Source: an uncultured Verrucomicrobiae bacterium | Lineage (GTDB): Bacteria > Chlamydiota > Chlamydiia > Chlamydiales > Rhabdochlamydiaceae | DNA length: 64,000 nt | NCBI GenBank assembly: GCA_963818965.1 | Contig: CAWFUG010000002.1 | Coordinates: 32,001 to 96,000, forward strand | Reading direction: 5' to 3' | Part shown: positions 16,736-18,554 of the stretch, piece after piece | Layout: every line of letters begins with the position of its first letter | Numbering within the stretch: the first letter of the stretch is position 1 | Notes under the pieces: generated by a model | What the model saw: the letters and a program-made list of their open reading frames with translations, nothing else | What the model was told of the DNA's origin: nothing | The model's database searches: none | Program-made: the position numbers and the translations under genes

Positions 16736-16890
16736 GAATTGAATTTGCAGGGAAGGATTATGCAGTCGGCTGTGGTATAGCTCCCCATCATTCCATTCTG
16801 AGTATATGCAATTTCACCACAGAGCCTTGGGAAGGGGGGCGTCTCGGTCCTTAATTTTATACTCTACCCCTTCCATCATCTAGATGTAAC

Positions 16891-16919
16891 TTGGGTCAAA
16901 ATCGGATCCAATCTATAAT
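16891..16919 (+). promoter_or_regulatory. Sigma70/66-type promoter inside the IS110 left end
   Basis: TTGGGT-17 nt-TATAAT. Confidence 0.55.
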
Positions 16920-16925
16920 TCCTCC

Positions 16926-17085
16926 TCGTAATGTAGAGGCCGAGCTATCATTGGCGCTTGTAAGCCCGGCACAGAGAATGGCACGCAAAAGGTCACGTAA
17001 GCATCGCTGGTGAGATCGTAAGATCATCCCGTTTAGGAGAATGTTGGCTTAACACCTTTTGCACATTGCACTTAACCCAAGGAAT
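16926..17085 (+). ncRNA. Putative IS110 bridge RNA (boundaries approximate)
   Basis: CACAGAG (16970-16976) equals target left + core; TTAGGAG (17033-17039) equals donor left + core; both followed by AATG; CATC (17002-17005) is complementary to target right. Confidence 0.6.
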
Positions 17086-17089
17086 TTTC

Positions 17090-18447
17090 ATGAACACCGA
17101 AATCGTGAATCAATCATCATCCATTAAAATTATCAATCCGAACGCTGCAGGAATAGACATAGGGGCTTCCTCCCATTTCGTTGCAGTGCCCGAAAACAGA
17201 AGTAAAGAGTTTGTTAAAGAATTTGGGTGCTTTACCCCAGATATTGAAAACATGATTACATGGTTAAGGGAATGCAAAATCAAAACAATAGTTATGGAAT
17301 CGACTGGATCCTATTGGATACCGGTCTTTGAAATGCTGGATCAAGCCGGATTTGAGGTAAAATTGGTAGATGCCCACCATGTAAAGAATGTAAGAGGACG
17401 CAAGTCAGATGTAATAGACTGTCAGTGGCTTCAACAATTGCACACCCACGGCCTACTCTCGGCAGCTTTCCGTCCAGAAAATGAGATAGTAGAGCTAAGA
17501 AGTTTCCTCAGACAAAGGTCCATGCTCATTGAAACAGCCTCTATGCATATCCAACACATGCAAAAGGCACTCGTTCAAATGAACCTACACCTGAACAATG
17601 TGATAAGTGACATCACTGGAGCAACAGGTATAGCTATAATAAGAGCGATTGTGTCAGGGGAAAGAAACCTCGATAATTTGGCAAAACTAAGAGACCCTCG
17701 GTGTAAACAACCTGAATCTGTAATCAGGAAATCTCTTCAAGGCAACTACCGACCAGAACACCTATTTGCCTTAAAACAAGCCCTTGAAGCCTACGACTTT
17801 TTCCAAAAAAAAATCGCCGAATGCGACAACGAGATAAAAAAAAACTCGAAGTGCTCTCCCCAATAAAAGAGACACCCTCACTGACAAAAAAGCCAAAAAA
17901 GCTAAAAAAATACGAATACGCTTTTAATGTAGCCGACCACCTAAAACAGCTCATAGGAACGGACCTAACAACGGTACCCGGGATAGACGTAAGCACTGCT
18001 CTGAAGTTAATCTCGGAAATAGGAACAAATATAAGAAAATGGCCAACAGAAAAACACTTCTGTGCCTGGCTAGGATTATGTCCTGGCACCAGAATATCCG
18101 GAGGAAGGCGAATTAGTAGCCACACCTCGCATTGTACCAATAAGGCAGCGATTGCATTGAGAATGGCAGCAAGCTCATTATACAAAAGCAAAACAGCACT
18201 TGGAGCTCACTTAAGACGCATGAAAGCACGTATGGGTCCTGTTGAAGCAGTGACGGCAACAGCCCACAAAATGGCAAGGGCCCTTTATCAGATGATACTG
18301 CGAAAAGAAGACTTTAGAGAAGCTGGCTCAGACTTTTACGATAAACTACACCAAGACAAAACACTGAAATTTTTGAAGAAGAGAGCCGCCTCCATGGGAT
18401 ATGTCCTAACTGAAATGGAAAAAATGAAAAGCGCTGTGCACCAATAA
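17090..18447 (+). CDS. IS110 transposase/recombinase split by a -1 frameshift at an A9 run (17836-17844)
   Basis: GIDIG, MESTG, KSDVID (DEDD) in ORF 17066..17866; TVPGID, WLGLCP, ISGG, AHKMAR in ORF 17821..18447. Confidence 0.85.
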
Positions 18448-18470
18448 CTTAGCTTGAAGTTACTTAGGAG

Positions 18471-18554
18471 ATGGAAAACCACAGAGAGGAAATTCATATT
18501 AAAAAGTTCCTCTCTGTGGTTTTCCATCTCTGTGGTTATACCCCGCGCGCTTAG
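18471..18554. repeat. Right part of the interrupted CCACAGAG repeat plus an adjacent TATACCCC half-element
   Basis: ATGGAAAACCACAGAGAGGAA...TTCCTCTCTGTGGTTTTCCATCTCTGTGGT then TATACCCCGCGCGCTTAG, the same juxtaposition as 8378-8498. Confidence 0.8.

Follow-up and report, generated by a model that had tools for sequence, protein, structure and literature searches.

A palindrome-targeting IS110-family insertion sequence in an environmental chlamydia carries a predicted guide RNA that matches its target and its own end

Insertion into repetitive extragenic palindromes (REPs) has been described for several insertion sequences (IS). Tobes & Pareja (2006, PMC1525189) report that ISPpu9, ISPpu10, ISPa11, ISPsy8 and ISRm19/22 insert specifically into REP sequences; the landing of ISPpu9, which like ISPpu10 is an IS110-family member, in REPs is also described elsewhere (PMC12288879), and IS621 is a published REP-targeting member of the same family (PMC11208160). 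In the account of Siddiquee et al. (2024, PMC11187229), the IS110 and IS1111 families differ in the order of their guides, the non-coding region lies upstream of the transposase in IS110 and downstream of it in IS1111, subterminal inverted repeats of 11-13 bp, placed 7 and 3 bp from the ends, are confined to IS1111, and the transposases of the IS110-proper subgroup measure 395-455 aa. Here, we analyzed a stretch of 64,000 nt from an environmental chlamydia (hereafter the window; positions 32,001-96,000 of contig CAWFUG010000002.1, assembly GCA_963818965.1), which carries an IS110-family element of 1646 bp, with the shared core counted once, at 16825-18470 on the + strand. Judging from its sequence and that of its relatives, this element very probably chooses its target by means of an RNA from its own left end, comparable to the IS621 bridge RNA or the ISEc21 seekRNA. 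The RNA-guided landing of an IS110 element in an abundant palindrome is established biology and involves no new mechanism.

The limits of the element were set by comparing the occupied site with empty copies of the repeat in which it lies. The two differ in length by exactly 1646 bp and have GAG in common, and the sharing of these bases at the junctions leaves an ambiguity of 3 nt in the limits. On the left, gtatatgcaatttcaCCACAGAG is followed by CCTTGGG, while on the right GTTACTTAG GAG is followed by ATGGAAAACCACAGAG; read over a longer distance, the junctions are gtatatgcaatttcaCCACAGAG / CCTTGGGAAGGGG ... GAAGTTACTTAG GAG / ATGGAAAACCACAGAGAGGAAATT...CTCTGTGGTTTTCCATCTCTGTGG ttataccccgcgcgct. 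The two ends of the IS, CCTTGGG... and ...TTAGGAG, form no terminal inverted repeats. When 16825-18470 was excised in silico with a script, a perfect 30-bp inverted repeat with a loop of 15 was restored, as a first-pass annotation of this DNA had claimed; its left arm runs from 16816 across the junction to 18491 and its right arm from 18507 to 18536, with a DNA fold of -36.8 kcal/mol. The target was not duplicated at insertion beyond a 2-nt core. Within the element, 265 nt of non-coding DNA precede the start codon at 17090, and 23 nt follow the stop.

Two empty copies of the repeat lie in the same window, where the first-pass annotation had placed them. The copy at 8410-8498 on the - strand is 94.8% identical to the reconstructed site over 58 nt and has the flanks GTATATGCA and ATACCCCGCGCGCT in common with it, its right arm being shortened to a single CTCTGTGG. 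The other, at 32761-32826, folds into a perfect hairpin of 31 bp (-38.4 kcal/mol). The occupied site and both empty copies each lie between convergent open reading frames (ORFs). With up to three mismatches allowed, the 24-nt arm motif was found four times in the window, compared to 0.00 expected from 100 shuffles. Across the genome assembly (2.24 Mb in 12 contigs, 87.85% complete), the pattern CCACAGAG-N8-CCACAGAG has 204 exact sites (101 + 103) and the reversed control pattern none, and CACAGAG is found 903 times where base composition predicts 258. The N8 pattern is absent from a genome of the same genus and present in one of 40 other relatives (G011, 7 copies). The earlier description of the repeat as genome-specific therefore holds for its exact form, which is nearly confined to this genome, but not for palindromes built of CACAGAG heptamers, which occur in other phyla.

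A blastn search with the IS returned exactly two full copies in the genome, which are 100% identical. Both lie directly after CCACAGAG of the outer repeat arm, with ATGGAAAACC and AGGGGAAACC as their right flanks. The second copy, on contig C9, reads aaattcaCCACAGAG / IS / AGGGGAAACCACAGAG and thus occupies the equivalent position of a different repeat copy. Comparing the flanks of every copy had been named as the test on which the insertion into the repeat could fail, and the C9 copy was found to have the same ends. The right contexts used by the two copies, ATGG and AGGG, occur 67 and 129 times, respectively. With about 200 sites of this kind available, the repeats may be regarded as a safe landing pad between convergent genes. 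A homologue of the transposase was found in only one of the 40 other relatives (G036, 62% identity) and in none of the same genus, so the IS looks recently acquired.

Regarding the nature of the repeat, a search for the REP-associated tyrosine transposase (RAYT) gene (Y1_Tnp, PF01797) gave no match in the 87.85%-complete assembly, while the control search was positive in 6 of 14 genomes. For this reason we avoid the label of REP proper. The target, which resembles a REP in position and shape, seems better described from its sequence as similar to REPs, miniature inverted-repeat transposable elements (MITEs) or Rickettsia palindromic elements (RPEs). The earlier assignment to a REP/MITE-like family thus stands in that an abundant palindrome has been hit twice, but does not extend to REPs in the strict sense. 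The outer flanks of the repeat are long and inverted (tccattctgaatatatgcaatttca...), which suggests that a larger mobile palindrome of the RPE-like kind may have the CCACAGAG palindrome at its core. We also observed a second, GC-rich palindromic module, ATACCCCGCGCGCT...AAGCGCGCGGGGTAT, adjoining the CCACAGAG repeat at about 8379-8423 (-) and at 18537-18551; it recurs beside many genomic copies of the repeat, which indicates that the repeats are modular. A 12-mer, TGAGATCGTAAG, that the left end of the IS has in common with the window at about 32881 was set aside, as an arithmetic estimate puts its occurrence at about chance expectation.

The coding part of the element places it firmly in the IS110 family. 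The DEDD_Tnp_IS110 domain (PF01548) was matched with an E-value of 4.8e-21 over residues 20-164, and Transposase_20 (PF02371) with 9.5e-13 in the -1 frame. The profile NF033542, 'IS110 family RNA-guided transposase', scored 176.2 bits on the N-terminal part (cut-off 140; profile positions 2-212 of 343) and 96.3 bits on the C-terminal part (positions 218-341). A phmmer search with each half of the transposase against PDB sequences, IS621 included, gave no matches. A profile built from 16 intact relatives and the two window fragments did match the transposases of IS621 (8wt6_A, E 1.6e-14) and ISCro4 (9t56_A, E 1.6e-11), with the motifs GID, (M/I)E(S/A)TG, (S/T)D..D and (I/E)SG in register. In this alignment, GIDIG, MESTG and KSDVIDC of the window correspond to GID, IEATG and KTDTVDA of IS621, and RISGG corresponds to ESGSS of chain 8wt6_A; the catalytic residues of IS621 are given as D11, E60, D102, D105 and S241 (PMC11208158). 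In its domains, catalytic residues and ends, the insert is an IS110-family element of the DEDD/serine type.

To characterize the left end, we collected related loci from species genomes (49) and metagenomes (80), and an nhmmer search found a conserved left-end scaffold in 112 elements. Folding of the left end alone by minimum free energy was uninformative (z -0.30), and a comparative structure was used instead. Derived with RNAalifold from 33 distinct sequences, it comprises five helices with 26 pairs. In this structure 96.8% of cells are paired, compared to 85.8% in shuffles (0 of 500 reach the observed value) and 36-47% with slid partners, and compensatory changes are seen at 17 of the 26 pairs against 6-8 in slid controls. 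Three G.U pairs are invariant or nearly so (33/33, 33/33 and 32/33 sequences); since they would be C-A mismatches on the other strand, the RNA corresponds to the sense strand. A hairpin CACGC...ACG after the first loop was dropped in favor of the covarying outer stem 16985-93/17055-63.

On the basis of this fold, a guide RNA is predicted at about 16926-17070. It would be built of two similar modules, each with a capped hairpin above an internal loop and a basal stem, in which hypervariable words stand between conserved anchors. On the 3' side of the first loop, GCACAGAG is identical to the left target and core, CCACAGAG, at 7 of 8 positions; on the 3' side of the second loop, TTTAGGAG is identical to the right end of the IS, CTTAGGAG, also at 7 of 8 positions. 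The analogy with IS621 drawn in the first-pass annotation is therefore supported, as the predicted left-end RNA has in its loops the words of both the left target and the right end of the IS. The TTG and TAnnnT of a candidate promoter that falls entirely within the left end are kept at the same places in the genomic relatives L030 and L036.

The words in the loops vary together with the flanks of the elements that carry them. The 7-mer of loop 1 recurs exactly 20-200 nt upstream in 75 of the 112 elements, and that of loop 2 recurs exactly 1450-1750 nt downstream in 88; both recur in 59. By arithmetic, the chance of one exact 7-mer in such spans is about 1-2%, and many misses fall on contigs that break off within the element. 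The left-target words include CACAGAG, CGCAGAG, AACCGAG, ACATCAG, CACGGAG, AGGTGAG, TAAAAAA and others. Both loops have AG as their last two guide bases; the exceptions are L027 and L035, with AA in both loops and at both junctions. The base preceding the core is often unlike between target and donor, as in L003 (CACAGAG and TAAGAAG). Because this base differs in relatives, we take the core to be the dinucleotide AG, and GAG to be AG plus a coincident G. Of the GAG or still shorter core proposed earlier, the short shared core is retained, the third base being a G that target and IS end happen to share.

Since the limits of the relatives had been found with the guides themselves, an independent test was made on the right flank, which had no role in setting those limits. 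The longest Watson-Crick run between the 5' side of loop 1 and the right flank averaged 3.89, compared to 2.78 after permutation (0 of 5000 as high; n=18 distinct guides). An unbiased sliding scan of the whole RNA placed the right-target signal at the same columns, with z values of 8.1 and 7.1 (n=86), and controls with the wrong partner gave no signal.

Further regularities were found at the ends of the elements. A 7-bp subterminal inverted repeat is formed by AAGTTAC at 18457-18463, 7 nt from the right end, and GTAACTT at 16886-16892, 62 nt inside the left end. Across elements, the left copy is found 33-61 nt from that end, and in the window it overlaps the TTG of the candidate -35. Of 53 distinct elements, 24 have an exact repeat, while permutations average 10.4 (none of 2000 reach 24) and two control offsets give 0; the repeat also covaries, as in GAGTTTC/GAAACTC and GGGTTTC/GAAACCC. 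The two bases after the loop-1 core weakly track the first two bases of the left end (0 of 2000 permutations, uncorrected for relatedness); this would correspond to the 'handshake guides' of IS621, although the window element itself (AA vs CC) lacks it. A separate observation concerns the 5' side of loop 2 (16997-17007 in the window). In 38 of 64 elements it has a same-sense match 24-27 nt into the left end (0 of 1000 permutations), which is weak for the window element and does not involve the first bases of that end.

Taken together with what is known of IS621, these features suggest a course of events for insertion. The 3' side of loop 1, GCACAGAG, would base-pair with the target's bottom strand, as it has the sequence of the left target and core, and CUAUC on the 5' side of the same loop could form pairs with the top strand immediately to the right of the cut (G/ATGG). 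On the 3' side of loop 2, TTTAGGAG corresponds to the right IS end and core. A circular form of the element, with its ends abutted as GTTACTTAGG-AG-CCTTGGGAAGG (..ACTTAGG-AG-CCTTGGG..), would then recombine with the target ..CCACAG-AG-ATGG.. across AG. Such a recombination would place the element after the first CCACAGAG of the repeat arm, with no duplication beyond the core. The features involved are listed in Table 1.

Table 1 Features of the IS110-family element, its target site and the empty repeat copies. Positions are those of the window.
Feature	Position	Strand	Basis or remark
IS110-family insertion sequence	16825..18470	+	Empty-copy comparison; identical second copy at C9:448504-450149
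Left target TTCACCACAGAG, final two bases AG = core	16813..16824	+	Identical left of C9 copy
Candidate promoter of guide RNA: TATAAT; TTGGGT 17 nt upstream (16891-16896); start near 16926	16914..16919	+	Consensus match
Predicted target-binding loop module: basal helix 16938-42/16979-83; cap helix 16952-57/16964-68; 5' loop side 16943-51, candidate guide for the right target (CUAUC can pair with G/ATGG); 3' loop side 16969-76, GCACAGAG = left target + core	16938..16983	+	Comparative fold
Predicted donor-binding loop module: outer stem 16985-93/17055-63; cap helix + GUAA hairpin 17008-17031; 5' loop side 16997-17007; 3' side 17032-39, TTTAGGAG = right IS end ..CTTAGGAG	16985..17063	+	Comparative fold
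Transposase, 0 frame, DEDD/RuvC-like domain; stop 7 codons past A9 run	17090..17866	+	
Transposase, -1 frame, Transposase_20 domain with RISGG serine motif	17821..18447	+	
A9 run, ATA AAA AAA AAC; proposed -1 frameshift/transcriptional slippage site	17836..17844	+	
Right end: AAGTTAC (right subterminal repeat copy) then TTAGGAG (left donor + core)	18457..18470	+	
Right target + remaining palindromic repeat, ATGGAAAACCACAGAGAGGAA... + complete right arm	18471..18536	+	
Empty repeat copy, same outer flanks, right arm shortened	8410..8498	-	Between convergent ORFs
Empty repeat copy, perfect hairpin	32761..32826	+	Between convergent ORFs

We then compared the sites occupied by related elements. 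CACAGAG stands to the left of L030, L036 and six metagenomic relatives. Among the 17 metagenome loci of the chlamydial clade, the guide word is readable in 11, and the left junction falls exactly after CACAGAG in six (L069-72, L074, L075) and with one mismatch in three. The right junction was found in 14 loci: in eight (L060, 63, 65, 66, 69, 71, 72, 74) the flank begins with one or two more CACAGAG, and in six (L062, L067, L068, L070, L075, L076) it does not start in this way. Of these, L067 has the guide CACTGAG together with CAGTGAG repeats, and L070 adjoins another IS copy. In a Parachlamydia metagenome-assembled genome (MAG; L036) and a Pyrinomonadaceae MAG (L002), the IS lies after the first heptamer of a CACAGAG-N-CACAGAG-N-CACAGAG array, which forms one palindrome arm. 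Such arrays number 8 in the former and 56 in the latter, against 0 and 1 for the reversed control. As L036 and L002 sit in such arrays, the clade appears to be specialized on heptamer-built palindromes in at least two phyla. The architecture of the palindromes varies, with heptamers 8 nt apart in the present genome and 1 nt apart elsewhere, and with arms directed inward here and outward in G041.

Some further observations were made at these loci. Array palindromes were seen at L056-L059 (G041, G043) and in the flanks of L002, L003 and L036; those of the Parachlamydia MAG resemble terminal inverted repeats belonging to a MITE some 190 nt long. Tandem IS copies were seen at L012 (Chloroflexales MAG, 155-3575), L029 and L070, where the target guide equals the right end of the neighboring copy, for example guide CTTAGGAG and neighbor end ACTTAGGAG; some members of the clade thus use the end of a neighboring copy as their insertion site. 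The acidobacterial L002 and both chlamydial sites have the same 12 nt on their left flank, TTCACCACAGAG, which reaches 4-5 nt beyond the guide. This identity may be due to chance, to extended recognition or to a shared origin of the repeats.

The transposase of the window element is encoded in two frames that meet at a run of nine A residues. Aligned to the uninterrupted 476-aa ORF region of L003, the 0 frame ends with ...AECDNEIKKNSKCSPQ* and the -1 frame goes on as KKKLEVLSPIKETPS.... In the 17 metagenomic relatives (L060-L076, 72-79% identity), a T followed by the A run is found at the same place and in the same codon phase in all cases, 16 with A9 and one with A10. Fourteen are arranged as in the window, with the 0 frame stopping 1-27 codons past the run and the -1 frame open for 152-209 codons. 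Two relatives, L065 (A10) and L060 (A9 plus an extra G), are in frame and give a fused protein, which measures 439 aa in the uninterrupted L065. L076, like the genomic relatives L030 and L036, carries other frame breaks, and in acidobacterial relatives the transposase is a single ORF.

The heptamer A_AAA_AAC is a type of -1 slippery sequence, as in IS1, and it is included in ATA AAA AAA AAC at the run. Among the 35 tRNAs found in the genome there is one tRNA-Lys (UUU) and no tRNA-Lys (CUU). Judging from the sequence, synthesis of the complete transposase probably depends on slippage by -1 at the A9 run, either ribosomal or transcriptional; phase variation between A9 and A10 at the DNA level is also a possibility. 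A shift of this kind would limit transposase synthesis and keep activity low. We found no report of programmed frameshifting in IS110 elements in the literature searched, a scope that left out most subscription journals.

Public sequencing data were also searched. Nine sequencing sets containing the stretch were found, all of them contig sets from soil or peat metagenomes, and their word shares were 0.06-0.15. Four of them gave pieces of 151-261 nt identical to parts of the IS, with the A9 run lying outside these pieces. A contig that skips exactly 1646 bp was considered as an excision product and rejected, as its loose ends match the paralogous empty repeat at C1:58153. The contigs identical to parts of the IS and the contig with the C1:58153 repeat indicate that several soil and peat metagenomes contain, at low depth, this organism or one very closely related to it.

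Several results weigh against an RNA-guided and active element. The statistics on the left guides are partly circular, given how the limits of the relatives were located; the test on the right target is free of this circularity. For the element itself, pairing with the right target is short: at the C2 site it comprises 5 bp, one of them G.U, and the C9 site (G/AGGG) pairs with CUAUC at 4 of 5 positions. For a right-donor guide, sought on the 5' side of loop 2 against the first 10 nt of the left end, there was no signal, with 3576 of 5000 permutations scoring as high and the sliding scan equally negative; CCCAAGG at 17076-82, the reverse complement of the first 7 nt, was dismissed as such a guide, since neither L030 nor L036 retains it and the ribosome-binding site overlaps with it. 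A script search found no promoter across the circle junction, and a scan of 16600-18700 for sigma-70-like sites was negative. Rfam (16500-18800, E<=1) gave nothing in the left end, the only matches being chance miRNA-like ones on the palindrome. There was no RNA run among the sequencing sets containing the stretch, and no circle-junction read in the low-share metagenome contigs. Moreover, the transposase frame is split in both genomic copies, and just 2 of about 200 matching sites are occupied; because of this low occupancy, either activity is low or arrival was recent.

The last two points could also mean that the element is a dead relic, disabled by a mutation at the A9 run (or split there through an assembly error), with the two copies as records of past activity. 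The closest genomic relatives, L030 and L036, do carry further breaks, and L030 lacks the TTAGGAG end. We nevertheless consider this unlikely, because the run and the arrangement of frames are kept in 14 of 17 relatives, and independent inactivation at the same site in 14 assemblies would be improbable. The fused protein of the in-frame variants L065 and L060, the slippery-type heptamer together with the single tRNA-Lys(UUU), and the complete identity of the two copies, which implies recent movement, also speak against it. Another explanation is that the protein recognizes the hairpin or cruciform of the palindrome, as enzymes of the IS200/IS605 or RAYT type do, the RNA matches being incidental. 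The targets here are all palindromes, and a stem-loop at the target of ISPpu10 has been reported as an additional specificity determinant (10.64898/2026.03.19.712850). Against this, the guide 7-mers covary with the flanks across relatives that have different targets, L012, L029 and L070 adjoin the end of another IS copy where there is no palindrome, and the enzyme is a DEDD/serine IS110 transposase, which makes hairpin recognition on its own very improbable. A structural contribution on top of RNA pairing is possible.

It could also be argued that the IS itself made or spread the palindromic repeats, as solo ends or footprints, and that no independent repeat family exists. Such an origin would account for CACAGAG palindromes being hit by related IS in the Pyrinomonadaceae (56 arrays) and Parachlamydia (8) MAGs as well, and for the 12-nt identity of the left flank TTCACCACAGAG between L002 and the window. 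In blastn comparisons, however, the repeats show no similarity to the IS ends, and they outnumber the IS by about 100:1. G011 has seven arrays and no transposase homologue at E<=1e-20, and the palindrome architecture differs between genomes. We regard this origin as very improbable, and target choice by a left-end RNA as the explanation that best fits the data.

The element resembles IS621 in its DEDD and serine transposase, in the long non-coding left end upstream of it, in a predicted RNA of two internal-loop modules with the target module first and the donor module second, in the 2-nt core common to target and donor, in the lack of terminal inverted repeats and in the use of a repeated extragenic palindrome as target. 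It differs in the order of the guides. The target-binding loop of IS621 is described as stem, left target guide (LTG), stem-loop and right target guide (RTG) (Durrant et al. 2024, PMC11208160; Hiraizumi et al. 2024, PMC11208158), so that the guide with the left-target sequence is 5' and the guide for the top strand is 3', whereas this order is reversed in the present element. The core is AG on the sense strand and CT solely on the complementary strand; the second T of the CT core of IS621 is almost invariant according to Hiraizumi et al. (2024, PMC11208158). Neither a junction-spanning promoter nor a right-donor guide was found here, unlike in IS621, and the transposase, of about 440-450 aa and split by the A9 run, is longer than the 326-341 aa of IS621. 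Read on the complementary strand, everything would fit the IS621 scheme, with a core of CT (TT in the two variants, so that the second T is retained) and with the core-proximal ends of both guides facing the same helices.

With IS1111 the element shares the guide order, and its covarying 7-bp inverted repeat may correspond to the subterminal repeats of that group. Unlike in IS1111, the predicted guide RNA lies upstream of the transposase, on the side with 265 rather than 23 nt of non-coding DNA, and the repeat is shorter and placed differently, 7 nt from the right end and 33-61 nt from the left end. The transposase length of this clade fits IS110 proper, and its upstream RNA the IS110 type. 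As in ISPpu9 and ISPpu10, an abundant extragenic palindrome serves as the landing site, and empty and occupied copies are found in one genome; the differences are that the host is an environmental chlamydia, that no RAYT gene was found and that the palindrome is made of CACAGAG heptamers.

It is conceivable, though we remain doubtful, that these elements form an undescribed IS110-type lineage, marked by an IS1111-like guide order and repeat, gating by the A9 run, specialization on CACAGAG palindromes and the joint spread of IS and repeats between phyla. In such a lineage the recombination site may be read on the strand opposite to the genes, and soil bacteria and amoeba symbionts may share both IS and repeats. 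The architecture of the clade may already be among the structures surveyed by Durrant et al. 2024 or Siddiquee et al. 2024. The latter state that the IS110 type 'may hold further families' (PMC11187229), and a clade with mixed IS110 and IS1111 features is a concrete candidate for one. Its reversed guide order bears on the variability of bridge-RNA geometry and is relevant for recombinase engineering. If the shift at the A9 run is real, transposases expressed from annotated ORFs would come out truncated. Independently of this, the locus is a clean case from nature, in which a single window of an environmental chlamydia contains both occupied and empty alleles, and the targeting of CACAGAG-heptamer palindromes in distant phyla raises the question of the nature of these repeats.

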